A stretch of 64,000 nt of DNA from a virus. The stretch's first letter is position 1. Every line of letters starts with the position of its first letter. A model generated the notes under the pieces. The model saw only the letters and a program-made list of their open reading frames with translations. It ran no database searches and was not told the origin of the DNA. Below are positions 3,094 to 52,751 of the stretch, one piece after another. The position numbers and the translations under genes are program-made. The stretch is taken from UHGV virus genome UHGV-1374671, one strand, 5' to 3'.

Positions 3094-3106
3094 AGGAGAT
3101 ACCAAC

Positions 3107-14269: not shown

Positions 14270-15949
14270 ATGATCAAGTACTCTGAAATTCTGACGCCGT
14301 TGCAGCAACACCAGGAAAGAGCCCGGAAACGGGCCCTGGTGCGCGATCTTATCCTGGCTCACTCAACAGGGTCCGGAAAGACTCTCACAGCCATAGCGGC
14401 TGCGGACGCCCTCGGAAAACCCACTACAGTGTTCACGCCGGCGTCCCTGGTTGAGAACTTCCGTAAGGAGCTGGCCAAGCATAAGAAGGGAGGACCTTCG
14501 GTGGAGGTTTGGTCGCTCCCTACCGCAGTGTCCCGCAAGTACAAGGTTCCGGCAGGAAACACGGTCATCATCGACGAGGCCCACGCCTTGCGCAACGAAG
14601 GCACCGCCAGGCAGAAGTACATCAAGGAGCAGCTACAGAACGCCGGCCGCGTGATCGGGCTTACTGGCACTCCGGCATACAACGACATTGCGGATTGGTC
14701 CCAGTTGGTGAATCTGGTTGCACGTAAGCGCGTCGTACCCAGTGACCGCAGCGAGTTCCGCAATCGTTACATCAACGAGCGGGAAGTGCGCCCCGGGCTG
14801 TGGGCCAGGCTTGTTCACGGTGTGAAACCCGGCGTCGTGGACGAGTTGAAGAACGCTGACGAGCTCCGGGAAAAGATGGCGCCCTATGTGGACATCTTCG
14901 ACGCCGACGTCGAGAAGCCGGAGCGGAAGGATGAGGTTATCGAGGTTCCCATGAACCAGCAGCAGATCGGCACCTACAAGTACGTGACGCAGGCCATGCC
15001 TACGGCGCTGTTCTGGAAGCTGACCCACAACCTGCCTCCCAGCAAGGCGGAGGCGAAGTCCCTGAACGCGTTCTATTCCGGCGTCCGACAGGTGGCCAAC
15101 ACACCGGAGGCGTTCTCTGCTGAGCCTGTGGAGCCTGGAGAGAAGATCAAGAGAGCGGTGCAGGAGCTGAAGAAGCGCATGAAGGACAACAAGGGGTTCC
15201 GTGCGCTGGTGTACAGCAATTATCTCGGCTCCGGCATCGATTCCTACGGCAGGTTGCTGGACAAGGAAGGGATACCGTACCGCAAGTTTACCGGTCAGCT
15301 CAGCACTGCTGAAAAGAAGTCCATCGTGGACGCCTACAACAAGGGAGAGGTCCCGGTGATTTTGGGATCCGGCTCGGCGTCGGAAGGGTTGGACTTGAAG
15401 GGCACCAGATTGATTCAGATTCTGGAGCCGCACTTCAACAACGCCAAGACCGACCAGGTGATCGGGCGCGGCATCCGGTACAAGTCTCACGACCATCTTC
15501 CGCCTGATCAGCGCAATGTGACAGTGCAGAAGTACATCAGCACGTTTCCGACCACCAGGAACTGGCTTGGGTTCAAGCGGGAGCCTCAGTCTTCCATTGA
15601 CCAGTACCTGACCAGCAGGGCGGAGGAGAAGGACCAGCTCATAGATCAGGTCAAGAACACACTGATCGACAACACCAAGACAGCAGCATGCAAGTGCAGA
15701 ACAGCGAGGTACGGCTTGAGCAAGATCATTTCATTCTTTGATGTGAAGAACCGCAAAGTGGTACGAGTTCCTATTGAGCAGTGCTACAAGTGCATGTACA
15801 CGCCCCGCAACCACAGCCAGGCCGTTGTGTACGCAGTGCGCGCTGTTACGGAGGACGGCACCAGGCTGACTCGTTTTGTTCCGGCCAAAGAGTACAGAAT
15901 TTTGAAATGCAGGGAATGTGACGAGCATGGCGGACACACCAACATTTGA
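14270..15949 (+). CDS. SNF2/Rad54-family DEAH-box helicase with C-terminal Cys-rich zinc-ribbon-like tail
   Basis: Motif I ILAHSTGSGKTLTA, motif II IIDEAHALRN, motif III LTGTPAYN, motif VI QVIGRGIRY. C-terminus CKCRTARYG...CYKCMY...CRECDEHGGH. Confidence 0.85.
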   Translation: MIKYSEILTPLQQHQERARKRALVRDLILAHSTGSGKTLTAIAAADALGKPTTVFTPASLVENFRKELAKHKKGGPSVEVWSLPTAVSRKYKVPAGNTVIIDEAHALRNEGTARQKYIKEQLQNAGRVIGLTGTPAYNDIADWSQLVNLVARKRVVPSDRSEFRNRYINEREVRPGLWARLVHGVKPGVVDELKNADELREKMAPYVDIFDADVEKPERKDEVIEVPMNQQQIGTYKYVTQAMPTALFWKLTHNLPPSKAEAKSLNAFYSGVRQVANTPEAFSAEPVEPGEKIKRAVQELKKRMKDNKGFRALVYSNYLGSGIDSYGRLLDKEGIPYRKFTGQLSTAEKKSIVDAYNKGEVPVILGSGSASEGLDLKGTRLIQILEPHFNNAKTDQVIGRGIRYKSHDHLPPDQRNVTVQKYISTFPTTRNWLGFKREPQSSIDQYLTSRAEEKDQLIDQVKNTLIDNTKTAACKCRTARYGLSKIISFFDVKNRKVVRVPIEQCYKCMYTPRNHSQAVVYAVRAVTEDGTRLTRFVPAKEYRILKCRECDEHGGHTNI

Positions 15950-21267: not shown

Positions 21268-21852
21268 ATGACCAAAGACGAATTCCGGGAGTTCATTCTT
21301 CAAGAAAGCGGTATCATCCAGTCCGACCCCACTGGCTTCAGTGTGTGTCACAGCTGTGGAGCCACAGGGGACTCCTTTGAGGAATCTGTCCGGCACCTGC
21401 CAAGCTGCAAGCTGATGCAGGCCCTCCAGATGATCACGCACGACATGCCGGACACTTTTATACTCGGAGTAGAAAATCAACTGACTGTGACCACGCTGCT
21501 GGACTTCATCCAGGCATTGGAACCGGAGGATGTCGCGTTCATAGATCAGCTCACCAGCAAAGTGCTGGAGGCGAAGGACGTCGAGACGCGGGAGTCGTAC
21601 TGGAGACCGCTGATTGGCTGGGCACCCAGCGCGAACCCGTCGCTGGTGCTGGCCATTGTACGGAAGGGCCTGAAGAACGATACGCAGCGCATCAGCTTCC
21701 GTAATTACATGATCTTCGAGAAGGCCACCAGCCAGTCGCTGGAGACGATACAGAAGCAGCTGCAGGACGTGCTGGACACCAGGGAAAAGGCCGGGAAGGT
21801 GTTTGACAATCTGTTCCGTAAGAAATATAATGTGCCTCTGGATGGCGCATAA
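21268..21852 (+). CDS. hypothetical protein
   Basis: The track start at 21226 lies inside the inverted repeat. The ATG at 21268 has AAGG 10 nt upstream. No domain recognised. Confidence 0.5.
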   Translation: MTKDEFREFILQESGIIQSDPTGFSVCHSCGATGDSFEESVRHLPSCKLMQALQMITHDMPDTFILGVENQLTVTTLLDFIQALEPEDVAFIDQLTSKVLEAKDVETRESYWRPLIGWAPSANPSLVLAIVRKGLKNDTQRISFRNYMIFEKATSQSLETIQKQLQDVLDTREKAGKVFDNLFRKKYNVPLDGA

Positions 21853-21896: not shown

Positions 21897-23789
21897 ATGG
21901 CAGTTTTAGATAATCCGGTGGGGGGTCGCGGCGGGTTGCACAACCCGTTTCGCACATACTCCAACTTCGTATATCCCCGCACCATCGACGAGGTGTTCAT
22001 CTGGGCCCTGTGGTTCTGGGACCGCAACCCGAAGTACAGGAACGCGCTTCAGAAGGTGGTTTCGTACTTCGTGGCCGGACTCAACGTGCAGCAGGACAAC
22101 ACGGCGGACGACGTGGACGAGGACATCGTCCGCCAGTTCGAGGAACTGCTGACTGAGAACTACAACGCGCTGCCTTTGATTGTGGCTTTCGGCGTGGAGC
22201 TGGCCGCCATGGGCAATGTGTTCGTGTCTGCCGAGCGGATCTTCACCCGTCAGCTGCTGTGTCCGACGAAGGGCTGTGGATGGCAGATGCCGGTGAAGCA
22301 GCTGCACAAGGGGATTGACTACAACTGGAACGGGCGCAACTTCACAGGACGCTGTCCTCAGTGCCACAAGGACGTCACATACAAGTTCAAGGATGTGAAG
22401 AGCGAGGACGCGTACGGGAGAAAGATCCGGTTCGTGTTCCGCGACGCCGTGGATATGCTGATCCAGTACAACCGACTCACCGGGACCTACAAGTATTACT
22501 ACAAAATGCCGGGGCAGATCAAGAATGCGATCAAGCGCGGGGACGCGGTCTATCTGGAGGATGCACCCAAGGTGTTCCTGGACGCCGCTGTCAACGACTC
22601 GCTGATCGAGTTCTATCAGGACAAGTTCTTCTCCATGCGGACCACCACCCTGACCGAGCTTGACAGGCTCTACAAGGGATGGGGAGTGCCGCTTTTCATG
22701 AACGGGTTCGACAACTTCATCCGGCTCCAGCATCTGGACAAGTTCAATGAAGCTGTGACCATGGACTACATTGCACCTGTTCGTATGCTTTCTCCCCAGC
22801 CCGCCAACCTGAAGTCAGGCGTGGATGACCCGAATCGCAATCAGCCCATCAGCGGACACATTTTCCGGAACATGATGCAGCAGTCCCTGAAGCAGGTAAA
22901 GGAGAATCCGACCACCTGGATCATCTCTCCGATCCCGGTTCAGTATCAGATGCTCGGAGGAGAGGCCAAACAGCTGGCTCCCGTGGAACTGATGGAGTGG
23001 TACACCAGCCAGATCCTGGCCGACATGGGCATTCCGCAGGAGTTCCGTCAGACCACGTTCCAGGTGGTCGCCCCCACCATGGGTCTTCGTATGTTTGAGC
23101 GACAGTGGGTGCACTTCGCCAAAGGGCTGAACACATTCACGCGCTGGATGGCGGAACAGATAGCCGAGGCTCACAACTTCGAGCAGATGTCCTGTTCTCT
23201 GGACATGACCTCCTTTGTGGAGGATGATATGAACAAGCAGATGACGTTCCAGCTGATGACCGGTGGGGTCATCTCCAAGACCAATACCTTGAAACGCATT
23301 GGTATCGACTACGAGGAAGACACCAAGCAGCGGATCAAGGAGCAGAAGCGCGAGATGGAACTCGGCAATGAGATGCAGGAGGAGCAGGAGAACTCCGAGA
23401 TGGTGAAATCCGTCATCCCGCCCGCAGCGGCTCCAGGCATCGGGCAGGCTACGGCCAACATCCAGGCAATGGAAGCAGCCGCCCAGGGACAGGCACCGGG
23501 TATGCCTGCGGCCCCGGCGGGCGCAATGCCGCCTGCGGCACCGGCCGGAGGAGGCCTGCCCTTCAATCAGGGAGCTTCGGAGGCCGCCAGCATCGACCAG
23601 ATGTTCCAGCAGGCCCAGCAGATTGCCGGAGAGCTGTACACGCTGCCTGAAGCGCAGCGCAGGTCTCAGTTGGTGCAGCTGAAGAACACGAATCCGCCGC
23701 TGCACGCAGCGGTCAAGCAGATGCTGACCGACATGAAGCAGGACGTGGCTTCGCAAGCCGTGCAGCAGAGTCAGCAACCGCAGGGATAA
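21897..23789 (+). CDS. portal-like / head-tail connector-like protein (tentative) with Pro/Ala-rich low-complexity C-terminal third
   Basis: SD AAGGAGAA. Size and position at the head of a virion-type block. Assignment is by gestalt only. Confidence 0.4.
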   Translation: MAVLDNPVGGRGGLHNPFRTYSNFVYPRTIDEVFIWALWFWDRNPKYRNALQKVVSYFVAGLNVQQDNTADDVDEDIVRQFEELLTENYNALPLIVAFGVELAAMGNVFVSAERIFTRQLLCPTKGCGWQMPVKQLHKGIDYNWNGRNFTGRCPQCHKDVTYKFKDVKSEDAYGRKIRFVFRDAVDMLIQYNRLTGTYKYYYKMPGQIKNAIKRGDAVYLEDAPKVFLDAAVNDSLIEFYQDKFFSMRTTTLTELDRLYKGWGVPLFMNGFDNFIRLQHLDKFNEAVTMDYIAPVRMLSPQPANLKSGVDDPNRNQPISGHIFRNMMQQSLKQVKENPTTWIISPIPVQYQMLGGEAKQLAPVELMEWYTSQILADMGIPQEFRQTTFQVVAPTMGLRMFERQWVHFAKGLNTFTRWMAEQIAEAHNFEQMSCSLDMTSFVEDDMNKQMTFQLMTGGVISKTNTLKRIGIDYEEDTKQRIKEQKREMELGNEMQEEQENSEMVKSVIPPAAAPGIGQATANIQAMEAAAQGQAPGMPAAPAGAMPPAAPAGGGLPFNQGASEAASIDQMFQQAQQIAGELYTLPEAQRRSQLVQLKNTNPPLHAAVKQMLTDMKQDVASQAVQQSQQPQG

Positions 23790-23801
23790 GGAGCGGCTAA
23801 C

Positions 23802-26294
23802 ATGAATTACAGACACCTGTACAAGACGGCGGCTCCCACCCAGCCGGCGCAGAAACAAACCTCAGCACAGCCGCAAAAACCCCAGCAGCCGGCTGGCAAC
23901 AGCGCGGCTCTGAAACTTAACATGAACAAGATGCCGGGCCTGGGTGATTCCAAGGAATACCGGGAGATGTGGTGGAACACCCGTCGCACCCAGGAACGCG
24001 ACAACGCGCTGAACGAATATCAGAAGGCGTCCCCTGACATCAAGTCCAAGTACAAGACCGCCGACGAGTATGTGGAATGGAAGATGAACCAGAACAGGTG
24101 GCGCTGGGATCCCAATGCTGCCCGCAGATACATCGGAGAGGGCTACACAGCCGGGCGCAAGGATGTGGAGGCCAATACCAGTCGCGACTGGTATACGCTG
24201 TGGATGACCAAGAACATCGACGAAGACTGGTTGATGCAGAACGCCAGTCAGAAGGCGCCCACGGATCCAGTCGAGTTTGCTCGTTGGAAGAACTACCAGA
24301 ACGCAGTCAGCGGTGCTGCCAACGCCACGGAAGCGGAGACGTCCGCCAATGCCAACGCCGGCATGTACGTAGCCGGAAAGGCATTGGACGGAGTTACCGC
24401 CGGTGTCGGAAATGTCGGAGGGCGGTTCACTGAGGCCGTCACTGGACAGACCCAGGATGAGCTGGCAACCGAGTTCGGTGAATTTGCGGGTCAGGGCGCG
24501 GAACAGATGCTGAGAGGCGCCGGCACTGTTGCCGAGGTCGGTGCGTCTCTTCCAACATATGCGTTGGCAGGCAGTGCCGCCAGTGCGCTGAAGGCGGCCA
24601 ACCCGGTTGTTACGTTTGGTGGCAAGTTTGCACCCGCGCTGCAGCGCCTGGCCACATATGGAACCAATGTGGCTGGAAATACGCTGAACACCTACCGGAC
24701 GTTGAAACCGGTAGGGCGCACGCTTACCAACCTTGGCGACACGATAGACAACGGCGGCAAGACGGAAAGCGGGACTGCCAGTTTTATAGGCAATACCGGG
24801 CGCATTATGGGAGGCGTCGCTGAATCCATTGCAGACACTGCTCCATATTACACAGCAGTGGGAAGTTTAGGAACTTTCGGAAAGATCCCGGGTATAATCG
24901 GCAAATCCGTAATCCCAGCTGAACTTGCGTTGGATGCTCCTGAATTGGCGAACGAGGCTCTTTTGTTGACCAATGAAACATACCGATTACGCAACTCCAC
25001 TATCGAGACACAGAAGTACAACCAGCAGCAGTTGGATGAGATCAGCAAACAGTACAAAGTGGATGCTGTTCAGGCCAAGCAGATCTGGAGTGACTTTACA
25101 TACTATGACTGGGATAACAACATCCTGACCAAGTATCCGGAAGCAGCCAACAATCCTGACATGATGAATGCTCTCCGCATTCAAACTGCGATCGGCGCTG
25201 CCAAAGCCGGCAGCATGCTTCCGAACGGTGTGTTCGACCTGCCTGGTATGACCCAGGAGCAGCGTACCCAGATCTTCGAGACATGGGCCGCCAACATGGG
25301 GGCTGCCGATACATCCGCGTGGGACGCCACCAAGAGTCTGTTCAATGGGAAGTTTGTGCTTGGTGATCAATACAAGCACGAGAAATTCCAGGAGATGCTG
25401 AAGAACAACCCGCAGTTCAGGGAAACGGCGGATCAGTTCATGTCCACCAGCGTTGCGCACTATGTGCAGAACCCGACTAAGGAGGCAATGGATCCTGACA
25501 GCCTGATGTACTTCAACGAGTATTGCGAGACGATTGGACAGGCAGGTGTAGACAAGGTCATGGCAGGTCCGTTCTCACAGCTGAGCCCCGAACAGTGGTC
25601 GAATTTGATAAACCAGCAAGGTAACGCCGGGGCCAATCCCATGGTGCAGCGTGCAGCCACCAAACAGCTGCTCAATGAAGTGAATGCCGATCCTGCCAAG
25701 GGCGGAGCGCTGCTCCCTGTGCTGATCGACCAGATGAAACAGGGCAAGGGCGGCTATGCGACGGACCAGGAGCTGAAGCCGAAAATCAATGCCATGCTCA
25801 AGAGCTGGGACCAGGAGAAATTTGACAAGTTCGCTGAGGCCGGCATCGACGCGTTCGAGGACGACGAGCAGTTCTACACTTTTGCCAAGTCCATGGTGTC
25901 AGGCAGCAGCGATGCGCTGGATGGCGTTCCGGACGAAGCGAAGGCGAAGCTGGAAGCCGGGTTCACTAAGGCAGTGAAGTCCCGTGTGTTCGATTCCGTG
26001 TTGAAGAATCCTGGAAACATGCACAAGGCCGTCGGGCTGTGGTTGCGCACCAAAGGCCAGGGTGGCATGGCAGACTCCATCGAGAACAACCCGTGGGTGT
26101 TCTACGGCGGACTGGCATTGCTGGTAGGCGGTGTCGGTGCCCTGACGCTGGGAGCGTTCTCCGGTAACGATGACGAGGAAGAGGAGGATGACGATGCCGC
26201 ATATAAAAAGAGAGTGCGTGGCCGTTATATGAACTCATACGGGACGCCGTACACAACTGCTGACATTATGAGGTCGTTAGAATATGGCGAATGA
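23802..26294 (+). CDS. large hypothetical virion-type protein with C-terminal TM helix and acidic tail
   Basis: SD AAGGAG. C-terminus GGLALLVGGVGALTLGAF, then DDEEEEDDD. Confidence 0.55.
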   Translation: MNYRHLYKTAAPTQPAQKQTSAQPQKPQQPAGNSAALKLNMNKMPGLGDSKEYREMWWNTRRTQERDNALNEYQKASPDIKSKYKTADEYVEWKMNQNRWRWDPNAARRYIGEGYTAGRKDVEANTSRDWYTLWMTKNIDEDWLMQNASQKAPTDPVEFARWKNYQNAVSGAANATEAETSANANAGMYVAGKALDGVTAGVGNVGGRFTEAVTGQTQDELATEFGEFAGQGAEQMLRGAGTVAEVGASLPTYALAGSAASALKAANPVVTFGGKFAPALQRLATYGTNVAGNTLNTYRTLKPVGRTLTNLGDTIDNGGKTESGTASFIGNTGRIMGGVAESIADTAPYYTAVGSLGTFGKIPGIIGKSVIPAELALDAPELANEALLLTNETYRLRNSTIETQKYNQQQLDEISKQYKVDAVQAKQIWSDFTYYDWDNNILTKYPEAANNPDMMNALRIQTAIGAAKAGSMLPNGVFDLPGMTQEQRTQIFETWAANMGAADTSAWDATKSLFNGKFVLGDQYKHEKFQEMLKNNPQFRETADQFMSTSVAHYVQNPTKEAMDPDSLMYFNEYCETIGQAGVDKVMAGPFSQLSPEQWSNLINQQGNAGANPMVQRAATKQLLNEVNADPAKGGALLPVLIDQMKQGKGGYATDQELKPKINAMLKSWDQEKFDKFAEAGIDAFEDDEQFYTFAKSMVSGSSDALDGVPDEAKAKLEAGFTKAVKSRVFDSVLKNPGNMHKAVGLWLRTKGQGGMADSIENNPWVFYGGLALLVGGVGALTLGAFSGNDDEEEEDDDAAYKKRVRGRYMNSYGTPYTTADIMRSLEYGE

Positions 26295-27201
26295 TCCTGC
26301 TGTTACGAACACCCCGTTTCTGCCAAAGAAACAGGATAACATCGTGTCCAGGGCGATTCAGGCCTATCAGAAGGTCGTGCCCAGTCCGCTGCTGCACGCC
26401 GCTCTGCTGGGAGCAGGCGCTTATGGTTTGACCCGGCTGGGTTGGAAACCCATTGTGGAGACCACCAGGTCGCTTGCCCGTGTTCCGGGCCGCGCCCTGG
26501 CCGGCATGTCGGACCAGGACTGGGACGCCGCGATGGACGAGCTGGGATCGGATCCTTCTTTCAGTCGCTGGATTCCGGCCGCAGTCGGCGCACTGGCTGC
26601 AGGCGGTGCGCTGGCCGCGCACTATCGTCCCAACAAACAGTACGGCGGATTGTTGAGCTGGAACGCGGACACGAAGTATTACCAGAACCCAGCCGAGCGT
26701 TTCCTGGCACCGGACACCAGCAATCAGTTCACGCCTCGCAGTGCGCAGGAGGATCGCTGGGTGAACCTCCTGCGCAAGACCGGTTCGCTGGACAAGACGG
26801 CGGACTCTCCTTACCTGTACGGAAATTATGTTCCGACCACGGACTTCTCCAAAGCACTCAATGCAGTCAGTGCGGTGGATCTGTTTGTGAACGACCCCTA
26901 TCTGCAGAACCAGGACTATGTGAGAAACCTGGGAACCTCCATCATCACCAATGCCGCCCAGCGGGAAGGCACCAGCCGACCCACGCTCGGCAGTGTGTTT
27001 GACAGCGCTGTGGACAAGATCGACAAGAAACTGTCGTTTGAAGGTCTCGCATCTGTAGGAGTGAAGTCACTGGTCGCCAACAGCGCAGCCAGGTTGTTCA
27101 CCAGTGCGCTGGGCGCAATGACGGATCTGGATCCGAGAGCCAGACAGAACATCATTGATGCAGGTACGTGGGCTGGAGCCATTACTGCTATTTTGGAATA
27201 A
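26284..27201 (+). CDS. membrane protein, glycine-zipper-like helices
   Basis: LLHAALLGAGAYGL, WIPAAVGALAAGGALAAHY. Confidence 0.5.
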   Translation: MANDPAVTNTPFLPKKQDNIVSRAIQAYQKVVPSPLLHAALLGAGAYGLTRLGWKPIVETTRSLARVPGRALAGMSDQDWDAAMDELGSDPSFSRWIPAAVGALAAGGALAAHYRPNKQYGGLLSWNADTKYYQNPAERFLAPDTSNQFTPRSAQEDRWVNLLRKTGSLDKTADSPYLYGNYVPTTDFSKALNAVSAVDLFVNDPYLQNQDYVRNLGTSIITNAAQREGTSRPTLGSVFDSAVDKIDKKLSFEGLASVGVKSLVANSAARLFTSALGAMTDLDPRARQNIIDAGTWAGAITAILE

Positions 27202-27212
27202 AGGAGACTTTC

Positions 27213-27548
27213 ATGGATATTCGCAAAAATGTGTACGGGCTTCAGAAAGAAGCGCTCGGATTGTCAGATATCACTGGAGCCGTAGGTGATCTCATTCATC
27301 TGGGCGGACAGGTTATCACGGAGGGCGGTGTTTATGTGCTGGCCGCTGCTGGCGCTGCTGGTATGGGTCTCGGTTACGCAGCTGCACAGATGACCGCTCA
27401 CGGTCCCCAGGACGAGGAAACCGCCAAGAAGGAGTACGTGAACGAGCGGCTCAAGGCGGATCTGGGATACCTGAGCGGCAAGACGAAGCTGGAGTACAAG
27501 GACTTCATCAATAAAGAAAAGCCGAAACCGGCCCGGGTGATCGCATGA
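27213..27548 (+). CDS. small glycine-zipper membrane protein
   Basis: SD AGGAG. AAAGAAGMGLGYAAAQM. Confidence 0.5.
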   Translation: MDIRKNVYGLQKEALGLSDITGAVGDLIHLGGQVITEGGVYVLAAAGAAGMGLGYAAAQMTAHGPQDEETAKKEYVNERLKADLGYLSGKTKLEYKDFINKEKPKPARVIA

Positions 27549-28018
27549 TCAAAGTGCAGAAAAAGGAAGCCGAGCTTGATCCAGGAGAGCTGGTAAGCTC
27601 CCATGACGCTGGGCTTGTTTTAGACAGCATGCTTCCTCAGGACGGCACGCAGCAGCCTCACGAACTGGACCCGCTGGGCAATGCCCTGTACAGTTACAAA
27701 TTCGAGGACCGGATCAACGGCATCGTTGTGGCGGAACAGGACAGAAAGCTGCCGATCGATCGCGAGGATCTTCTGTCCGTGGCGTTCAGGCTAAAGAGTA
27801 CGGAGCGCTCCTGGGTGTTCTGGATGTCTCCGGAACACGAGGAGAACTGCAAGAAATACGCGGAGTTGTTGAACCGGGCCAACGAGGGTCGGGTTCGCAT
27901 AGTGGAAGAGACCAAGCAGTACGACACTGCAAAGAGTGCGTTTATGGTTTGGATTCGGTATTACGAATGCGAGTTTGAGCTGCATCCTCGCTTTGAATAC
28001 TTACGCAAGGAACAGTAA
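27545..28018 (+). CDS. hypothetical protein
   Basis: ATGA overlap with the upstream gene. Confidence 0.5.
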   Translation: MIKVQKKEAELDPGELVSSHDAGLVLDSMLPQDGTQQPHELDPLGNALYSYKFEDRINGIVVAEQDRKLPIDREDLLSVAFRLKSTERSWVFWMSPEHEENCKKYAELLNRANEGRVRIVEETKQYDTAKSAFMVWIRYYECEFELHPRFEYLRKEQ

Positions 28019-28021
28019 AAT

Positions 28022-29125
28022 ATGAACAAAGAAGCAGAAAAACCTTTGAGCTACGCTGGTACTGGTCCTGCCTACTCGTACCTGTCCACGCTGAATCCCA
28101 TTTCCGGAGTCACCGGAGGCGGTGACCGTTTTCCGGAATGGATTGCCAGAATGTTTCCCGGCAATCCTCAGGCCGCGCATATGACGTTTAAGCTGGGCGC
28201 TCTCGGGTTGCTGACCGCAGGTGTTGTCGGTAGCGCGCGAATGATCAAGCACTTCAACAATATGGCCGACCTGGCGGAAAAGGACAATCCGGCAGGCAAG
28301 CTGCACTCGCAGCTGTCCACCACGTTTGAGGTTCCCATGAGCCCTGGCGATGCACATAAGGGGTCGGAAAAAGACAAGACTGTCAACAAGGCAAAGCAGT
28401 GGATCCGGCAGCGTGTCGGCCAGGTGGTCGACACTGCGAAGAGCGACGTTAGCGCAGTCACCGGACTCTTTACAGGCAAGACTGCTGCCATCAATGTGAT
28501 CGAAGACCCGAATCGCGGCATCGAGTATACTCCCAAGAGCCTGTCCATGGGCAATGCTATCAGCATGGCGGCGCCTCTGGGCGTTATGCTGCTGGCTGCT
28601 GGAGCTGGTTACAAACTCGCCGACAACATTGCCGGTGCGCGGCGCAACCGGCTGCTGGACGAGGCCATCAAGCGCAAGGCGGACGCCACCAAAGCTCTGA
28701 TGAAAACCCGTGCCAGGATTCCAAAGGGACTTGCAACGGAAAAGGACATCAAAAACACGCACGATATCATCAGCTCCGACGACATCTTCCTGAAGCAGGG
28801 ATCCACGCCGCTTACGCAGAAGGTGGTTTCGGCTGCAGGCCTGCTTGGCATCGCCATGATGTCGGCAACCGCGCTCGGCTCCTACAAGTACTTCTCCGCC
28901 AGTAATCCGAACAACATCAAGTACAAGGCGCTCAAGAAGGGCTTGTCCGAGTACGCCAAGCAGCGCACCAACCTTGCTCCGATCTCGGTGATCCCGACGG
29001 ACTCCGATGCGTTCTTCAAGGAGATCGACGGACCGGCTGCAACGGCTGCACCCAAGGCGACTCCGAGGTCGCTGCCCCAGTTCGATCCCAGTACGCTCAA
29101 CAACCCAATCTCGGTGTCGCTGTAA
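28022..29125 (+). CDS. multi-pass membrane protein with GxGY glycine-zipper helices
   Basis: GALGLLTAGVVGSA, MAAPLGVMLLAAGAGYKLA, AAGLLGIAMMSATALGSYKYF. Confidence 0.55.
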   Translation: MNKEAEKPLSYAGTGPAYSYLSTLNPISGVTGGGDRFPEWIARMFPGNPQAAHMTFKLGALGLLTAGVVGSARMIKHFNNMADLAEKDNPAGKLHSQLSTTFEVPMSPGDAHKGSEKDKTVNKAKQWIRQRVGQVVDTAKSDVSAVTGLFTGKTAAINVIEDPNRGIEYTPKSLSMGNAISMAAPLGVMLLAAGAGYKLADNIAGARRNRLLDEAIKRKADATKALMKTRARIPKGLATEKDIKNTHDIISSDDIFLKQGSTPLTQKVVSAAGLLGIAMMSATALGSYKYFSASNPNNIKYKALKKGLSEYAKQRTNLAPISVIPTDSDAFFKEIDGPAATAAPKATPRSLPQFDPSTLNNPISVSL

Positions 29126-29128
29126 CAA

Positions 29129-29992
29129 ATGGACGGTCAGATCACAGACATGCCGGTAAACGCGGTTCCTGGCCCTGTACAGCAGGGTTCAGGCTCCACC
29201 GTGTCAACACCCGTGTCGCCGGCTATCTCTCCTGTAAACGCCCCTGCTGTGCCCGCAAAACCGGATCCGCAGAAGGCATTTGCCGGAGCGACTTCCAACA
29301 TGCTCCGTGCCCAGCAGAAGTTCATCGCGGACGTGCTGACGGAGAAGCCGGTCACCATGTACCGGATGGACGACTATCCGACGATCCGGCGCACGTTGTT
29401 CGAGAATGTCAAGGAGGCCGTGTCCAAGCGTTTCCCGCTGTACAACGACAGGTATACGTTGGAGTTGGAGAACGTGGATTACGACGATCCGGAGGAACTG
29501 GACCTGCCGGAGCAGAAACAGGCGATTCTGGAAGGACGCTCCTGTTCCAGACGGCTGCGTGGCACCTGGGTGCTGCGCGACGCCGCCACCAACAAGGTGG
29601 TGGACAGATCCAAGCGCATGACCCTGATGAAAGTTCCGTACATGACGGATCGCGGTACTTTCATCCGCAATGGACACGAGTACACTTTCACCAACATCAT
29701 GCGCATGGAGCCAGGAGTCTACACCAAGCAGAAGGATGATGAGATCTCGGCCCAGTTCAACATCAAGAAGGGAACCGGGGCCGGCTTCAATATGCGTTTG
29801 ATCCCCAGTACCGGCATCTTTCAGATCAGTCGTGGCACCACGAATTGTCCGGCGTATGCTGTGCTGCATGATCTGGGCGTTTCTGACGAGCAGATGCAGA
29901 AGGCCTGGGGAGAGGAACTGTTCAAGAAGAACAAGGAAGCGGGTACGGGCGAGAAAGCGCGTATCGCAGCCAACAAGATATACAACATGTGA
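29129..29992 (+). CDS. hypothetical protein
   Basis: Complete ORF, weak RBS. No domain recognised. Confidence 0.45.
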   Translation: MDGQITDMPVNAVPGPVQQGSGSTVSTPVSPAISPVNAPAVPAKPDPQKAFAGATSNMLRAQQKFIADVLTEKPVTMYRMDDYPTIRRTLFENVKEAVSKRFPLYNDRYTLELENVDYDDPEELDLPEQKQAILEGRSCSRRLRGTWVLRDAATNKVVDRSKRMTLMKVPYMTDRGTFIRNGHEYTFTNIMRMEPGVYTKQKDDEISAQFNIKKGTGAGFNMRLIPSTGIFQISRGTTNCPAYAVLHDLGVSDEQMQKAWGEELFKKNKEAGTGEKARIAANKIYNM

Positions 29993-30022
29993 TCATAACC
30001 TATGAGCAAGGAAGGGTGTGGA

Positions 30023-31198
30023 ATGGAATACAACGAAGAACTTTGGGACGGTTCTGAGCTGAGCAAGGAGGCGGGCATCGGCCAGTGGCTCAAGAATACC
30101 ATGAGAGGGATTCGAGTTCGTGGCAAGCAGACTTGGCGCGGAACCAAGAAGCTCCCTGGCAAGGCTTGGCAGGGAACCAAAGCGATACCCGGCAAACTTA
30201 AAAATGAGTACAAGGATATGAGCACCGGCAAGAAGGTGCTTCTCGGTGGTTCAGTCGCCGGGTCGGCAGCTGTTGGCGGTGCCGGTATCATCGGCGCCAA
30301 TTCTTACTACAACAGTCAAATTGAGCACGAGAAGGAAAAGCAGAAACTTTTGGACGACCTGCGGCAGACCCAGAACAAGCCCATTGTGCAGCAAGCTACC
30401 AGTCGTAAAGTCGATAATGGAGCTGGATCTGGATCGAATCTTGTCGGAACCGGCATCGGAGCCGGTGTTGGTGGGTTGGCCGGATACGGTATCGGATCTG
30501 CGCTGTCCAAAGACAAGGCTGCCAGAATCCTGTCGGCACTTGTTGGAATGGGTGCCGGCGCGTACATCGGCAATCAGTACGGCAAGAAAGCCAGCGCCGG
30601 GCTTTCCACTCCGGAACGTATTATGTGCAAGATTGCAACGCGTGACGGAGCGGGACTTGGCACTTTGTCTACCCTGGTGCTGATGAGCAAGGCCGCTGCC
30701 GGGGAGCAGAACGCGGCTCCCAACATCTGGGATGCAATCCGTGAATGGGCCACGGCGGACAACTACAAGAATCTGAAACAGGTCGGTACCGGGTTGGGCA
30801 TCGGTCTCGGTACGTACGCACTGTCCGGACTGATTCCTGGCGCATCCAAGTCCCGTGGAGCACGGGCCTTGCTGGCAGGTGCCGCCGGTATTGGCGCCGG
30901 TATGTACGGGAACAAATTGGTGGATACGATTTCCGGATATCTGAATCAGAGACGCGCTGCCGGGACGCAAGGACAGCAGACACAGCAGACACAGCAGCCT
31001 CAGGCGCAGAAGCAGACACCTGCGAAACAAGTGCCTGCGAAACAAACTCCGGTGAAACAAACGCCTGCGAAACAGGTACAACAGCAGCCCGGGACGGGAT
31101 TGCCACAGCTCCAGTTCGATCCGATCCTTCAGGATTATCAGCAGCGTCTTGCGCCCGATATCTTCGGAGCGAGCGGTCCAAGTACGGTCCACGTGTGA
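30023..31198 (+). CDS. glycine-zipper membrane protein with Gln/Pro-rich tandem repeats
   Basis: The ATG at 30023 has GGAAGGG upstream. GIGAGVGGLAGYGIGSAL, GTGLGIGLGTYAL. Repeat TPAKQVPAKQTPVKQTPAKQ. Confidence 0.55.
   Translation: MEYNEELWDGSELSKEAGIGQWLKNTMRGIRVRGKQTWRGTKKLPGKAWQGTKAIPGKLKNEYKDMSTGKKVLLGGSVAGSAAVGGAGIIGANSYYNSQIEHEKEKQKLLDDLRQTQNKPIVQQATSRKVDNGAGSGSNLVGTGIGAGVGGLAGYGIGSALSKDKAARILSALVGMGAGAYIGNQYGKKASAGLSTPERIMCKIATRDGAGLGTLSTLVLMSKAAAGEQNAAPNIWDAIREWATADNYKNLKQVGTGLGIGLGTYALSGLIPGASKSRGARALLAGAAGIGAGMYGNKLVDTISGYLNQRRAAGTQGQQTQQTQQPQAQKQTPAKQVPAKQTPVKQTPAKQVQQQPGTGLPQLQFDPILQDYQQRLAPDIFGASGPSTVHV
30973..31077 (+). repeat. short tandem repeats (cagcagaca x3, then a 15-nt unit cctgcgaaacaa... 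x4)
   Basis: Read directly from the sequence. Confidence 0.6.
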
Positions 31199-31228
31199 AA
31201 TAACTCAAAACAAATAGGAGATGCCAAT

Positions 31229-32230
31229 ATGAAGTACACTGACATTTTGAATATGCAGCACGTGGACACCATGTCCAAGTTTGCAGGCCTTTTCGGCAAG
31301 GCTGTTAAAGGCGGTATTAAAGGGGCCCGTAAGGGTAAGGTCAAACCCAAAGCAATTGGACACATCACGCCCGGAGGACTTCTTTTGGTCGGGGGCGGTG
31401 CGGCATCGGTACCGGCTGCAAAGTGGGTGGCAGACAAGATGAACGAGGCCGGGCAGGTGATCGGTGACGCCTACTATGCCGAAGACAGGCAGAAAGCTGA
31501 GCAGAGCATCGCGCAGGCGGACAGACGGCTGCAGGCACATCAGCGCATTCTCGAACAGCAGCATAAACTGCGGGATATGGAAGCCAGCAGCGACGCCACC
31601 GCCGAGCAGATCGCCGCGCAGCGCGCGGAACTGCAGCGCATGCAGGATGAAGCTGCAAAAGCTACGGAGACTGCCAAGCTGATGCAGGAACAGGCTGCGA
31701 GAGATACGCAGATTGCCAACGAGCGTGCTGCGGGTTTTGATAAGGCACTGGAAGCCGAACGTAACAAGGCTGAGATGGAATCGGCTGAGCTGCTCGGTCG
31801 TATAGCCGATAAAGACAAGACGAATCGGATGCTCGCAACCGGCCTCGGGGCAGGCGCCGGTGGGCTGGTTGGTTATGGGATCGGTTCCGCTCTTACGAAT
31901 AAGCTGCCGTACCGTCTGCTCGCCGCCCTTGCGGGCGGCGCTGCCGGCGGCTTTGGTACCAACTATCTGTATAAGAAGTGGAACAACAACAAACAGGCCA
32001 GCGTTGCCCCGGCGGCGGCTGCGGTTCCGGCAGTGCCCGGCAAGTCGGCCTTCGGCAGTGCGAAGAACTGGCTGAAGAATCGGCGTGCCCTCAAGGAACC
32101 GGTTGCGGCTCCCAAGATCGTTCCCACCCAGCCGGACACCAACCAGGTGAAGTCGGCGTCTGCAGAGATGCCGCTGGCGCACCGCATTCTGCTCGGGCTT
32201 GCCATTAACGGTATGCCGAAGCCGGAATAA
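31229..32230 (+). CDS. coiled-coil plus glycine-zipper membrane protein
   Basis: SD AGGAGA. LATGLGAGAGGLVGYGIGSALT, ALAGGAAGGFGTNYLY. Confidence 0.55.
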   Translation: MKYTDILNMQHVDTMSKFAGLFGKAVKGGIKGARKGKVKPKAIGHITPGGLLLVGGGAASVPAAKWVADKMNEAGQVIGDAYYAEDRQKAEQSIAQADRRLQAHQRILEQQHKLRDMEASSDATAEQIAAQRAELQRMQDEAAKATETAKLMQEQAARDTQIANERAAGFDKALEAERNKAEMESAELLGRIADKDKTNRMLATGLGAGAGGLVGYGIGSALTNKLPYRLLAALAGGAAGGFGTNYLYKKWNNNKQASVAPAAAAVPAVPGKSAFGSAKNWLKNRRALKEPVAAPKIVPTQPDTNQVKSASAEMPLAHRILLGLAINGMPKPE

Positions 32231-32253
32231 ATTATACTCCAAGTATAAAATCG

Positions 32254-32284
32254 AAAGGAGCTCTTCGGGGCTCCTTTTTGTTTC
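32254..32284 (+). terminator. rho-independent terminator
   Basis: 8-bp stem AAAGGAGC / GCTCCTTT, 8-nt loop, then TTGTTT. Confidence 0.75.
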
Positions 32285-32324
32285 CACGCTGCGCCTATTT
32301 TAAAAAGAAACGACAGGGCTGACT

Positions 32325-35300
32325 ATGGAATCCGTAATCCCCGTTCATTATCATCAATTACCGCTCATCACCGGGACGGATATTGTCTACGAAGAGGCAC
32401 TCCCGCTCTGGGACATGAATGCCAAGCGTATCATAGTCGGAGACGGTGTAACGCCAGGAGGCGTACGCATCCCGAACTTCAATGACGACCTGTCCTATGT
32501 GCGCAAGTTCGTACTGGCCGATACTACGGCAGTGACCAAGGACTGGCTGATCTGCACCACTCAGCTTACCGTGAATCTTCCGGAGGATGCCACCGCCATG
32601 TCAGTGGTGCGTATCTCCACGCTGGCGGATGTGGAACCGGTTACGGTCAAGACAGGTGATACGGTGGTGCTGACACTTGGTTCCAGCACCACCGTGGAGC
32701 TGGTGTACGGAGACACCGGATGGGTTGTCACTGAGAACACCAGTGCGGCGGCGGACATGGGAGAATATCTTAAGCGCGAAGCTCTGATGCTGAACGGAGC
32801 AGCGGCCCAGCTGGTGTCCTTCAAGTCCATGACACAGTCCGCATATGACCTCATTACTCCTGTCATCGACGCAGTATATTTCATCAGAGACACCGGTAAA
32901 CTGATCTTCAACGGCGTCGTCTACGGCTCAGGAGGTGGTGGCGGTGGAGAGAGTGGCGTTTCCACGTATCTGTATGTGGCGTATGCGGCAGATGATACCG
33001 GAGCCGGGTTCTCGTTGATACCCACGGACGACCTTCCTTATCGTGCCGAGATTCATGTGCATGTCGAAATTCAGAACCCAACGCTGTCCGATTTCGCCGA
33101 TGCCGTGTGGATCAAGTACATCGCCACCGGTGGAGGCGGTGGAGAGGGAGGCGCGCCGCGCCAGGCCTTCACCAAGGACGACGTCACAGTGGAAGCCACC
33201 GGCGACGACCAGAACGCCGCTTATCTGACACTGTCTTCGATGTTCACGGTTGTCGGCATTCTGGACAACGAGGGAGTACAATGGAATCTGCCATCCCAGT
33301 CGGTCAAAAAGTTGGACAACTCCACTCGCGTGGACATATCTAGTGTGTTGGCTGACAAGGGGATAACTGCTGACAAAATTGTGGACATCTGGTATGTCCT
33401 TTTTGCTGCGTCAGAGAGTGGTGGGGGTACCGGAGGATCTGTTGCCTGGAGCGACGTTACAGGGAAGCCTTCCACATATCCTCCTGCTGCGCACACCCAC
33501 ACCATTTCCCAGGTGGATGGTTTGCAGACCGCGCTGGACAACGCCGGCAAGGTGAAGACAGTCAATGGCATTTCTCCGGATGACACCGGTAACATTACCA
33601 TTGAGACTGGCGGCACGGTGAAGACGGTCAACGGAATCTCTCCTGACGAGTCCGGCAATGTCATTATCGACACCGGATCCGATGTGGATGAGAATCGGCT
33701 GCTGCCCACTTCCGCCAATCACGAGGACATGCTGATTTTCGACGCCACCAGTACGGTCGGCGGAGGCAATGACGAAAGCACCAAGTTTCTGATTCAGATA
33801 CCGGCGGGTGGCAGTCTCATCACGGATACGGCAGCAGGCAATCAGGCTGCCGTGCCCATAGAGGACAACGGCGTTCAGGTCAACGCAGAAGGCGAGATGG
33901 TATTCAGCGGTTCCAATTACTTGAAGATCGCGGCTAATACGCTGCCTGCTGATCTGATGGGAACCGACATGGAGTTCACCATTGACATCCTGTACACTGC
34001 CGAGAGCAAGAGTATACAGTGCCTGTTTGGACGCGGGGACAGCCCCCGTATGGATTTCCTGTTGCGCAGCAGCGGTGTCATGGAGATCGGCGGCGGCCCC
34101 AATCTTGGAAGCGGCTGGCCTTTCAATACCCAGACGCTGCTTACCTTTGATTTGTGGAAGCTGGACAATACCTGGAATTATGCTGTGTACCGCAACGGTT
34201 CTGTTGTTACGACAGGCACCTGGGGGACGGCCAATTTCCGTGGATCTGACCTGTGGATCGGATGGGAAGGCAATACCAGTGGCCGAGAGATGACCGGTAA
34301 GATCAAGGCTTTCAGGCTTACCAACAAGGCGCTGTACAAAGGTGTATCGTTCTCTCCGAATTATCCGTGGAGTGTTCCTGTAAATGTCGGAGAATGGGGT
34401 ACTGTCAACAAGTCCGAGTTTGTGACCAAGGACAGCAACCGCCTGTTACCGGCAACAGATACGGTTCCGTCCGCCAACGTGAACAATCCAGTGATCTTCA
34501 AAGCAATCAGTCGGATTGACAAAACGTACTGGCTGTGTCTGCCTCTCAATGAGGATACGCTGGACAGGTCGAACTACGAGGTGCTTACGACTGTGGAGGG
34601 CACTGCTCCCATTGTAAGCAACGCACCCAGCACTCCCGGTGGTTCGATATACTTCAACGGAAGCTCCTGTTTGCATGGAGAGCTGCCGGCTGCGTTTGGT
34701 GTAGGCGATTTCACAGTCCGCATGTGGATGATGGCTCCTTCCATGACCAGTAGCACGTACCCCCGAACGCTTTTCTCCACGCGCAATGGCAATGCTACCA
34801 GCGGCTCCACCTTCGCGCTGCACTGTCAGCCGGACGGGAACCTGTTCATCTACTCCAACACTGACATCACTCCTCGGGACACTGCTCCGCTCAAGTTGCA
34901 AGCCGGTGTCTGGTACCACCTGGCTGTGGTACGTAAGAACGGTGTCATAACGATCTACGTCGACGGCCAGACATATGCGTCCGGCAATATGACCAACGGC
35001 CTGACCCGCCAGGTGTTCAGCATTGGCGCTTCCTGGGGTTACAGCAGTTACAACGAGGCAGGCACTGTGTACATCTCGTCGCTGGACGTGCTGAACTACG
35101 CAGCGTATGACGGTGAGTTTACAACTCCGACTTACCAGCCCGGAATTCTGGCCGGTGCTGGTTACGAAGTAGCGACGGACGACGAAGTCAAAAGCATGCT
35201 CAGCGTGGCAGGAATTGACGAATCGCGACTGCTGCCCGACCCGGCGGCGGTTTCGGCCAGTCTTGCCGGACACCCGGTGGTGTTCGACGTTCAGGAACTG

Positions 35301-40170: not shown

Positions 40171-40776
40171 ATGAAAAGATTTCTGATCAGTGCCTTGCTG
40201 CTGGCAAATACGGCGTTGTTCGCTTGCTGGGGCACGGCCGAGGACTACGACAAGGCGTTTATCTACGCGGTCAACAACTTTGTCCGCACCCAGCTGGTGA
40301 GCCTCACGTATCCGCCCACGTTTCAGAACGGAGGTAACGTATCCTTCCCGGCGACGATCAACGTGCGCATCAGCCCCAACGAAACCGGCAACCCTGTTAC
40401 GAAAGCCGTGCTTCAGTACCGCGTCGGAGAATCCGGGGAATGGACCACGGCTGTTACACTGGACAATCCGAAGTGGGAACTTGACATCATGACTCCCAGG
40501 CCGGTGTTCGGTATTGACGTGATCAAGATCAACCCGATCCCAGCACAGGGGACCAGGGTGTACATCCGTATGTATCTCACAGACGGTGTGTACGAGACCT
40601 TTGATCTGGAGAGCAACGAGACACCGCTGGGTGCCTTCTCCTGCTACGTGACCAGCACAGGCCGTGCGGTTCCGCAACTGGCCCCTGTGAACGCCTTGAT
40701 CGAGAACGCTGACGGGCAGATACAGCCTGTTCAGCTCGCCTCATTGATGTTTACGAACGAACAGGAGTCGAAATGA
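40171..40776 (+). CDS. secreted protein / probable lipoprotein
   Basis: SD AGGAGG. Signal peptide MKRFLISALLLANTALFAC. Confidence 0.55.
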   Translation: MKRFLISALLLANTALFACWGTAEDYDKAFIYAVNNFVRTQLVSLTYPPTFQNGGNVSFPATINVRISPNETGNPVTKAVLQYRVGESGEWTTAVTLDNPKWELDIMTPRPVFGIDVIKINPIPAQGTRVYIRMYLTDGVYETFDLESNETPLGAFSCYVTSTGRAVPQLAPVNALIENADGQIQPVQLASLMFTNEQESK

Positions 40777-52562: not shown

Positions 52563-52751
52563 ATGCAGAGTATGAGACATCTCTACGGACTCGACAAACA
52601 GGCGGCTCAGAAGAAACAGGCCTTCGCCAAGAAGCTCGCCGACTTCATGCGTCACCAGCGCATGGAGGCGCAGCAGAAAGCCGCTGCTGCCGTCGAACGC
52701 GGTAAGAACAACGTCCTGGCCATGATCCGTCAGGCCTGCAACAGCAAATAA
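52563..52751 (+). CDS. small protein with RHLYGLxK N-terminus
   Basis: SD GAGG. MQSMRHLYGLDKQAA parallels the start of the next gene. Confidence 0.4.
   Translation: MQSMRHLYGLDKQAAQKKQAFAKKLADFMRHQRMEAQQKAAAAVERGKNNVLAMIRQACNSK

Follow-up and report, generated by a model that had tools for sequence, protein, structure and literature searches.

Giant phages that package a multisubunit RNA polymerase, among them phiKZ and SPN3US, encode paralogous, fast-evolving families of ejection proteins. The propeptides of these proteins terminate in a short protease motif that also occurs in the capsid protein; in one of them, SPN3US gp47, the mature part is predicted to contain a transmembrane (TM) helix, and contact with the host membrane has been inferred (PMC5694885). 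In T4, a capsid-targeting sequence (CTS) sends diverse cargo to the prohead core and is then cleaved, and the cargo is injected with the DNA (PMC3012670, PMC5694885). The ejection proteins of N4 form membrane channels in bilayers and release the virion RNA polymerase (PMC13434306), and glycine-zipper effectors, including Tde1 of a type VI secretion system (T6SS), permeabilize membranes from outside (PMC12955049). Here we analyze a stretch of 64,000 nucleotides (hereinafter, the window) from the UHGV virus genome UHGV-1374671, a gut phage that, by sequence comparison, is a distant relative of Salmonella phage Arash. We describe a family of window proteins that share a two-helix glycine-zipper hairpin and, in all cases but one, begin with a short leader whose terminal motif recurs in the major capsid protein, a combination that makes them candidate ejection proteins.

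The decapeptide G-A-x-x-G-G-x-x-G-Y is present in exactly five proteins of the window. These are listed below in amino acids (aa) and nucleotides (nt), with a slash marking the end of a leader or internal motif:

30023-31198, plus strand: hairpin protein of 391 aa, leader ending in LSKEA/G, hairpins at nt 30437-30589 and 30776-30928
31229-32230, plus strand: hairpin protein of 333 aa, leader ending in TMSKFA/G, hairpin at nt 31823-31978
43857-44486, plus strand: hairpin protein of 209 aa, leader MTYAEFEKQA/A, hairpin at nt 44034-44186, followed by an L-R-K-S-A/S site
53743-54585, plus strand: hairpin protein of 280 aa, leader MNYIEVQKMRKEA/A, hairpin at nt 53863-54021
917-1891, minus strand: marginal member of 324 aa with glycine-zipper helices, best match at nt 1349-1429, without N-terminal leader

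All-against-all comparison with BLASTP and phmmer linked only 30002 and 31229 and, more weakly, 53743, 43857 and 917. The pairwise profile comparison that a preliminary description of this DNA had proposed, performed here with hhalign, connects four of the proteins at 77-98% probability (30023 with 31229, 98%; 43857 with 53743, 90%; 31229 with 43857, 87%; 31229 with 53743, 77%) and attaches 917 marginally, at 34-49%, whereas 23802, 26284, 27213 and 28022 remain below 7% with any other protein. Every significant profile-profile alignment spans the hairpin of about 50 residues. A hidden Markov model (HMM) of the hairpin matches only the five proteins among the 839 six-frame open reading frames (ORFs) of the window, with two hairpins in 30023-31198, and leave-one-out HMMs recover each of the five members (E 1.4e-10 to 2.9e-4) with no other match at E<=10 in the same set. 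Because hhalign, the hairpin HMM and the leave-one-out HMMs agree, we consider the family real, with five members, not the eight paralogues counted in the preliminary description: 26284, 27213 and 28022 fail with both hhalign and the HMM, and contain only Gly/Ala-rich hydrophobic helices of unrelated families. The proposed glycine-zipper 2TM-like character stands for the five proteins, near the Pfam thresholds, and falls for these three. The five are not the unrelated low-complexity Gly/Ala runs that, according to the same description, would have refuted the idea.

By sequence, the hairpin lies at the edge of the Pfam glycine-zipper families. Against the cut-offs of 24.2 bits for PF05433 (Glycine zipper 2TM) and 25 bits for PF13488 (Gly-zipper_Omp), 30002-31198 scores 23.0 bits with PF05433 and the near-identical cluster representative P0042 scores 29.4; 31229-32230 scores 19.4 bits with PF13488 at full length and 25.2 bits with the hairpin alone, and the glycine-zipper score of 53743 is 14.8 bits. 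At E<0.01, PF13488 is matched by 5, and PF05433 by 4, of the 13 hairpins taken from the window, its relatives and Arash. The layout of two helices with GxxxG(xxxG) and a short loop is seen in 30023 (twice), 31229, 43857 and 53743, and only in part in 917. In the hairpin-family alignments, which are shallow, invariant columns make up 63-69% of the hairpins compared with 26-32% elsewhere (P 5e-5 and 1e-14), the orthologues being 49-78% identical overall; in the 26284, 27213 and 28022 families, conservation of the Gly-rich helices does not exceed that of the remaining sequence. The helices, of 17-23 residues, are uncharged (0-2 charged residues per helix), with an Eisenberg mean hydrophobicity of 0.36-0.69 and a moment of 0.06-0.22; every loop examined carries a net positive charge. 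On the additive Hessa, Kyte-Doolittle and Eisenberg scales, which are cruder than dedicated TM predictors, the hydrophobicity of the hairpin helices is too low for classical Sec-inserted TM helices. Neither a signal peptide nor a lipobox was found in the first 45 residues of the five members, the N-termini of which are polar, and cysteines are limited to a single one in 30023-31198; thus, the hairpin proteins fail the definition of lipoproteins.

The hairpin is rare. A profile search of 1.84 billion representative sequences returned only 30 matches, about half of them phage-like and with an N-terminal leader; 14 of 27 hairpin-profile hits carry the same leader as the window proteins. Some of the matches are multi-hairpin proteins from AT-rich sources, and the weakest are bacterial Glycine-zipper 2TM lipoproteins (E 5e-5 to 9e-4), which are the nearest non-phage relatives. 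For 53743, the homologue search yielded only two near-identical clusters. In the Protein Data Bank, the hydrophobic core of the prion protein was the only match to the hairpin profile (E 0.0016), and the hairpin helix of 53743-54585 at aa 47-60, GAVGGGALGYMLS, is nearly identical to that core in the human protein. We rejected homology to the prion protein and take the resemblance as convergence on a classic glycine zipper.

A coiled coil, which the preliminary description noted in some members, is present in 31229-32230: a long one at aa ~62-203, modeled by AlphaFold2 as helices 62-119 and 125-203 with a predicted local distance difference test score (pLDDT) of 70-83. A LysM domain had likewise been reported in one member, and here the match is below threshold: the C-terminal fragment of 917-1891 (nt 920-1111) scores 17.5-17.9 bits against the PF01476 cut-off of 20.9 (E 0.003), and the full-length protein has no match at E<=0.1. 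Given this LysM-like end and the lack of a leader, 917-1891 may have a separate, envelope-directed function. It is the only clear minus-strand gene at the start of the window.

A second feature of the hairpin proteins is the motif [LMIVFY]-x-K-x-A. Window-wide, it occurs at 71 sites compared with 32 expected and a maximum of 52 in 1000 shuffles, whereas control motifs in which R, E, Q or D replaces K occur at expectation. The motif lies within the first 40 residues in 16 of 42 window proteins (expected 6%, P 1.6e-9), including the four hairpin proteins other than 917-1891 and most other proteins of the block, among them 23802, 27213 and 28022. When relatives and Arash are added to the window, the motif is N-terminal in 46 of 120 proteins, frequently as a leader of 5 residues (M-x-K-x-A) or of 11 residues (M-[KR]-Y-x-x-hydrophobic-x-x-K-x-A). 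In the major capsid protein, it occupies residues 25-29 in three divergent phages:

this phage (L013:14272-15234): L-Q-K-T-A/G
Arash (L008): L-V-K-E-A/G
Vibrio phage D69 (L014): L-T-K-E-A/G

Other head-module proteins contain 6-10 copies each, namely 56922-59120, 60045-61898 and 61917-63797 in the window (9-10 sites in each of these), gp220, gp222, gp223, gp225 and gp242 of Arash, and the D69 counterparts. The density of the motif in Arash is 3.2 per 1000 aa in virion-module genes compared with 1.1 in early genes. Within otherwise variable linkers the motif is retained, as in the disordered linker 133-184 of the 26284 family, with its conserved L-D-K-T-A site, and just after the hairpin in 30023 (Y-G-K-K-A/S after the first hairpin), 31229 (conserved KQAS and VKSAS sites downstream) and 43857. 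This is the pattern expected of a prohead-protease site combined with a capsid-targeting propeptide, and the motif has the look of a prohead-protease or capsid-targeting signal, so far undescribed, of the Arash-like lineage. One more leader-bearing protein, outside the hairpin family, joins the leader-tagged set beside the polymerase genes:

52763-53746, plus strand: protein with leader MSEKYRHLYGLGKAA/V, rich in Pro, Ala, Gly and Met, with a coiled-coil C-terminus

This protein has 327 aa, and its N-terminal half is of low complexity, with PPMDPMAAGG-like repeats, followed by the coiled coil. The leader form RHLYGL-x-K-x-A is found in 52763-53746 and in a 62-aa ORF just upstream (52563-52751), and is shared with 23802 (MNYRHLYKTA).

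The genomic context of the hairpin genes is that of a head-morphogenesis module, with a portal homologue upstream, a capsid homologue downstream and virion-type polymerase genes interleaved. The capsid gene (phrog_2522; E 4e-20 to Arash gp226) falls immediately outside the window, some 12 kb downstream of 53743. The polymerase genes and the other window genes with Arash counterparts in this region are as follows:

29129-29992, plus strand: detached N-terminal piece of the beta subunit of a multisubunit RNA polymerase, counterpart of Arash gp206 residues 26-218, the polymerase N-terminus (phmmer E 1e-24; phrog_24349); 287 aa in relatives
45169-52542, plus strand: RNA polymerase beta (C-part) fused to beta' (N-part), containing a LAGLIDADG intein (Pfam), counterpart of the remainder of Arash gp206
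54601-56907, plus strand: C-terminal part of RNA polymerase beta', counterpart of Arash gp216
14270-15949: counterpart of Arash gp217, helicase
56922-59120: counterpart of Arash gp218
61917-63797: counterpart of Arash gp222

Of the hairpin genes, 43857-44486 is located two genes upstream of the main polymerase gene, its orthologue in a divergent relative being directly upstream of that gene, and 53743-54585 is directly upstream of the beta' C-terminal gene. Mass spectrometry of Arash virions gave the most spectra for gp206, with gp216, gp217 and gp218 also abundant (PMC10585845). Because gp206 and gp216 are abundant in those virions, the multisubunit polymerase of the present phage is, by analogy, very probably a virion enzyme. 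Two glycine-zipper proteins of Arash, gp213 and gp224, were also seen in virions, with 7 and 8 unique peptides (PMC10585845); both are encoded in the corresponding neighborhood of the Arash genome, gp213 between the polymerase genes. From the computed family membership, conservation, gene position and motif enrichment, and from the motif shared with the capsid protein, we infer packaging, cleavage, ejection and membrane insertion for 30023, 31229, 43857 and 53743: with a probability of about one half, they are ejection proteins that are packaged in the head, processed by a protease and inserted into the membrane of the host. The fifth member, 917-1891, may act differently. Among the roles that the preliminary description had left open, a membrane-associated virion or ejection apparatus would fit best with the head-module position, the leader shared with the capsid protein and the analogous virion proteins of Arash.

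Under this reading, the hairpin proteins would be made late, from a head-module operon that begins at the portal gene, and the short leader ending in [LMIVFY]-x-K-x-A would steer them into the prohead, where a prohead protease would cut the leader off and further sites past the hairpin would allow trimming of the protein. Because the hairpin helices are uncharged but only weakly hydrophobic, the proteins would stay in solution both in the cell that makes them and inside the capsid. At infection, the proteins would exit through the contractile tail together with the DNA and the polymerase; the GxxxG faces would promote oligomerization, the hairpins would enter the host cytoplasmic membrane from the periplasmic side, and the membrane potential would pull the Lys/Arg-rich loop inward. 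The outcome would be a pore or a membrane anchor that passes, or holds, the DNA and the polymerase.

A broader scenario, which we consider quite improbable as a whole, is that the Arash-like lineage uses [LMIVFY]-x-K-x-A as an undescribed code for capsid targeting and maturation, borne by about one third of the virion-module proteins, and that the tagged SlyB-like hairpin proteins, once injected, form a pore or platform at the cytoplasmic membrane that receives the polymerase and the genome and at which early transcription starts. In its role, such a structure would compare with the early-infection vesicle of phiKZ-like phages.

Several observations weigh against the ejection reading. The additive Hessa free energy of the hairpin helices, +4.8 to +6.4 kcal/mol, is a poor membrane-insertion score, compared with +0.2 to +3.5 for lipoprotein-like signal peptides in the same window. 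The AlphaFold2 model of 31229, built from five sequences, is confident only for the coiled coil and is uninformative on the hairpin, because the pLDDT there is ~30. No gene for a prohead protease was found in the head module with Pfam and PHROGs. Leader-like motifs also occur on the tail-fiber-region proteins 5213, 8667 and 11527, a number that fits chance (about 2.6 of 42) but weakens the specificity of the signal, and 917-1891, encoded on the opposite strand, lacks a leader. The glycine-zipper virion proteins of Arash are, by sequence, analogues and not demonstrable homologues of the window proteins, the best hhalign alignment of gp213, with the 31229 hairpin, reaching only 33% probability. 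Finally, the Arash proteome lists 116 'virion' proteins (PMC10585845), and, because this list is probably contaminated, detection in Arash virions is weak evidence. The gene-sequence table in the supplement to the Arash paper contains no peptide lists showing cleavage.

The head-module position and the leader evidence would apply equally to internal head proteins without any membrane role, in which the zippers only pack helices within an inner-body, scaffold-like, DNA-organizing or polymerase-holding structure. Helices too weakly hydrophobic for classical TM prediction are compatible with such a role, the 9-10 motif sites in each of 56922, 60045 and 61917 are as expected of diced scaffold or inner-body proteins, and phiKZ-like phages have paralogous inner-body as well as ejection families (PMC5694885). 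The hairpins themselves argue in the other direction: the helices are uncharged over 17-23 residues and have a low hydrophobic moment, the loops are uniformly basic, like those of membrane hairpins, and the nearest non-phage relatives are membrane lipoproteins of the bacterial Glycine-zipper 2TM family. We regard a purely structural role in the head as possible but unlikely. We consider it improbable, too, that the hairpin proteins are non-virion membrane proteins of the infected cell, such as prohead-initiation anchors at the portal, lysis factors of the holin or pinholin type, or proteins for superinfection exclusion. The inner membrane is where T4 builds its proheads, and the hairpin genes adjoin the portal gene; glycine-zipper helices are known from pinholins and many channel proteins (Kim et al. 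2005, as cited in PMC12955049), and 43857 has a weak Pfam match to Phage_holin_5_1 (15.3 bits, cut-off 22.4). A consensus sigma-70 promoter upstream could mean transcription by the host polymerase, and 917-1891, with the LysM-like end and no leader, may belong in this category even if the others do not. Yet the hairpin proteins lack a signal peptide or a strongly hydrophobic TM helix, and the leader is common to the capsid protein. Given the basic loops and the positive-inside rule, insertion from the cytoplasm would require export of large N- and C-terminal domains (up to ~200 aa) without a signal sequence. Assignment as holins or pinholins was rejected: with 209-391 aa, the proteins are unlike holins, which are usually under 150 aa, the free energies (+4.8 to +6.4) are unfavorable, the Phage_holin_5_1 match is sub-threshold, and the family matches for the block and its flanks include no endolysin.

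The similarity to PF05433 and PF13488 and the presence of bacterial lipoproteins among the matches of the exhaustive search (E 5e-5 to 9e-4) would suit secreted outer-membrane lipoproteins of the SlyB/Pcp type that remodel or stabilize the host envelope. This is contradicted by the absence of a signal peptide or lipobox in any of the five proteins, only one of which, 30023-31198, has a cysteine at all, and the true lipoprotein-like genes of the window, 40171, 42143 and 42939, look quite different, so that we deem such a role very improbable. Barely credible is the notion that the motifs are Gly/Ala-rich, low-complexity segments that arose by chance and share neither origin nor function. In its favor, three of the eight proposed members, 26284, 27213 and 28022, are unrelated to the others and have Gly-rich helices no more conserved than the remainder, but it is refuted for the five, which share a motif with six fixed positions in hairpins that are the most conserved part of the proteins, are found by leave-one-out HMMs with zero false positives in 839 ORFs, and have a profile that matches only 30 of 1.84 billion representatives.

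The passage of a virion RNA polymerase and the genome across the cytoplasmic membrane after the contractile tail has fired is poorly understood, as are the virion proteins responsible, and the hairpin family together with the N-terminal tag defines a specific candidate set for this step. Because two phages of the lineage, Salmonella phage Arash and Vibrio phage D69, are in culture, the prediction is open to direct test. The lineage-wide leader motif raises the value of the hairpin finding. If [LMIVFY]-x-K-x-A truly signals capsid targeting or cleavage, sequence alone could reveal which proteins of many uncultured gut phages are head-internal and injected, and the leader could serve to package foreign proteins, like the T4 CTS. 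If the hairpins are only packing elements, the finding shrinks to a refinement of annotation.

The hairpin genes 30023-31198 and 31229-32230 close a row of ten plus-strand genes, closely spaced or overlapping (21897-32230). The features of this block other than the hairpin genes and the polymerase piece already listed are:

21803-21831, plus strand: sigma-70-type promoter-like site, TTGACA-17-TATAAT, 12/12 in a consensus scan only, upstream of the portal gene
21897-23789, plus strand: portal protein homologue of 630 aa, counterpart of Arash gp204 (annotated as portal, found in virions; phmmer E 6e-49)
23802-26294, plus strand: protein of 830 aa, leader MNYRHLYKTA/A, one C-terminal hydrophobic Gly-rich helix at aa 765-783 (+1.4 kcal/mol); outside the hairpin family
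26284-27201, plus strand: conserved all-helical protein of 305 aa with two Gly/Ala-rich helices in the N-domain; 34 clusters in public data; outside the hairpin family
27213-27548, plus strand: protein of 111 aa, leader MDIRKNVYGLQKEA/L, one Gly/Ala-rich hydrophobic helix; outside the hairpin family
27545-28018, plus strand: conserved soluble cassette protein of 157 aa without a Gly-rich helix; a small post-portal ORF of Vibrio phage D69 is weakly similar (E 0.02)
28022-29125, plus strand: protein of 367 aa, leader MNKEA/E, Gly/Ala-rich hydrophobic helices at aa 54-72, 179-197 and 268-286 (+1.9 to +4.6 kcal/mol); outside the hairpin family
32253-32283, plus strand: intrinsic terminator with an 11-bp stem, UUCG loop and U-run (hairpin at 32253-32278; -18.7 kcal/mol, z -3.6)

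The ORFs exist as given in the preliminary description and are also called as genes on the source contig. Its portal-like gene upstream is supported by the homology to the Arash portal, with no Pfam or PHROG match to the product of 21897-23789, and the strong terminator that it placed at the end of the block is confirmed. The block is not an unbroken run of membrane proteins as had been described, given that 29129-29992 encodes the N-terminal piece of the polymerase beta subunit. The putative promoter is a possible start of an operon running to 32230; a perfect sigma-70 consensus is odd before a late structural operon of a phage with its own polymerase, and Arash has sigma-like factors too. 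The helix of 23802-26294, WVFYGGLALLVGGVGALTL (within aa 765-830; +1.4), is the most TM-like of the block and is followed by the acidic run DDEEEEDDD and then by a conserved basic tail, KKRVRGRYM...YGE; the length of this protein varies from 829 to 1333 aa among relatives. AlphaFold2 modeling of 26284 with 25 sequences gave two helical domains (pLDDT 70-87), and a Foldseek comparison of this model with the Protein Data Bank gave no significant match (best E 1.6).

The beta/beta' fusion is a single ORF in Arash (gp206) and in Vibrio phage D69, and is split here and in all relatives of the gut clade, the N-terminal piece of ~250-290 aa lying 15 kb upstream of the remainder, with tail-fiber-like, RCC1-like, lipoprotein and Gly-zipper genes between the pieces. 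Relative to the Arash homologues, there are three intein-like insertions: at aa ~1874-2368 of 45169-52542, which is the LAGLIDADG intein (Pfam Intein_splicing, LAGLIDADG_3), and at aa ~334-504 of 54601-56907 (beta' C-terminal part) and ~72-261 of 61917-63797 (the gp222-like structural protein), both Hint-type with weak Pfam matches. Two more inserts of ~320-370 aa are located in 45169-52542, at aa 194-560 and 673-995.

The source contig is a 176-kb scaffold from a human-gut metagenome. The large polymerase gene (45169-52542) matches Vibrio phages D69, D181 and D148 and Salmonella phage Arash at ~30% identity. No close relative was found in phage, IMG/VR or plasmid-type collections: searches of 26000-33000 (blastn) and 30002-31198 (tblastn) against a 50,697-record phage collection gave no match, and a scan of IMG/VR with the 31229 family alignment gave no relative. 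The cassette order of portal, large protein, 26284-like, 27213-like, 27545-like and 28022-like genes and the polymerase N-terminal piece is kept in six related contigs, with identities as low as 36% in the 26284 family, and the genes that follow are variable among relatives, yet always include Gly-zipper proteins. The HMMs of all block families and of the hairpin had no match in the complete Arash genome or in 47 kb of Vibrio phage D69, except for the 157-aa cassette protein, which matched a 97-aa D69 ORF (E 0.02). With this one exception, the lack of matches indicates that the cassette is confined to the gut clade, and data from Arash virions therefore bear on the window locus by analogy only. 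Pig-gut relatives have an extra 222-aa Gly-zipper gene (L002:7536-8204) and a 30023 orthologue (L002:8205-9968) with an N-terminal extension of ~200 aa that carries a further hairpin, so the family appears to grow and shrink between close relatives. The view that such a set of paralogues is unusual for a phage seems overstated, considering that giant phages with virion RNA polymerases have paralogous families of ejection proteins (PMC5694885). In another related contig, SRR9184938_122032, a 274-aa protein (L010:17197-18021) combines an N-terminal Gly-zipper hairpin with a HELGH zinc-protease-like motif, and its gene sits just upstream of the helicase and polymerase genes.

Elsewhere in the window, 40171-40776, 42143-42922 and 42939-43730 encode lipoprotein-type signal peptides (e.g., MKRFLISALLLANTALFAC), 42143 and 42939 being paralogues of each other (E 1e-13). 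The tail-fiber-like genes 1969-3093, 3074-5200, 9290-11530, 5213-8644 and 32325-37721 form paralogous sets: 1969 and 9290 have a common N-terminal domain (E 1e-32), and 5213-8644 shares domains with the 1798-aa LamG-repeat protein 32325-37721 (E 1e-32 to 1e-35). The gene 8667-9272 bears a CBM5/12 carbohydrate-binding module.

Several known systems resemble the hairpin proteins in one respect or another. As in the Pfam Glycine-zipper clan (PF05433, Rick_17kDa_Anti, SlyB/Pcp/YfgH; PF13488), there are two uncharged helices of ~20 residues with GxxxGxxxG and a short loop, whereas the SlyB/Pcp/YfgH lipoproteins differ in having a signal peptide and lipobox, and here the hairpin forms part of larger proteins that bear a coiled coil and a phage leader. 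Among solved structures, the G-A-x-x-G-G-x-x-G-Y signature is closest to the prion hydrophobic core, by coincidence or convergence. Judged by description, the T6SS effectors Tse4 and Tde1, the type VII secretion system (T7SS) proteins TelE and LXG-T2, and Caulobacter CdzC/D offer a functional parallel, as soluble delivered proteins whose zippers mediate insertion and form pores or translocate cargo; the T6SS itself is a contractile, phage-tail-like injector (PMC12955049). Unlike these effectors, the window proteins have no immunity gene, and their purpose would be productive entry, not killing. Podovirus ejectosomes (T7 gp14-16, P22 gp7/16/20, and N4 gp51/gp52 with the virion RNA polymerase gp50) are likewise head-internal, are ejected and build membrane-spanning conduits (PMC13434306, PMC8954989), but belong to unrelated families from short-tailed phages that need a periplasm-spanning tube. 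Because the Arash tail is contractile and 140 nm long, only passage of the inner membrane would be needed here. The ~10-residue leader M-K-Y-x-D-V-L-x-K-x-A resembles the CTS found on T4's internal proteins (IPI-III, Alt), the sequence of which is MKTYQEFIAE, in length, in position and in ending at a protease site (predicted here), although the P1 residue would be Ala instead of the Glu of T4, and the T4 internal proteins are small, soluble, anti-restriction proteins that are not membrane-active.

The closest known kind by function would be, by analogy, the set of ejection and inner-head proteins found in giant phages whose virions contain a multisubunit polymerase (phiKZ, 201phi2-1, and SPN3US gp47 and gp53/gp54). 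The points in common are head-module genes of a large myovirus-type phage with a packaged multisubunit RNA polymerase (here read from sequence), paralogous fast-evolving families, a leader motif shared with the capsid protein and multiple sites within proteins. As for the differences, no sequence homology to the phiKZ and SPN3US proteins is detected, and the hairpin proteins are set apart from them by an Arash-like lineage with a fused beta-beta' polymerase, by short, T4-like leaders of 5-20 aa compared with more than 100 aa, by a candidate motif [LMIVFY]-x-K-x-A in place of S/A/G-x-E, and by a two-helix hairpin of the Glycine-zipper 2TM type in place of a single TM helix.

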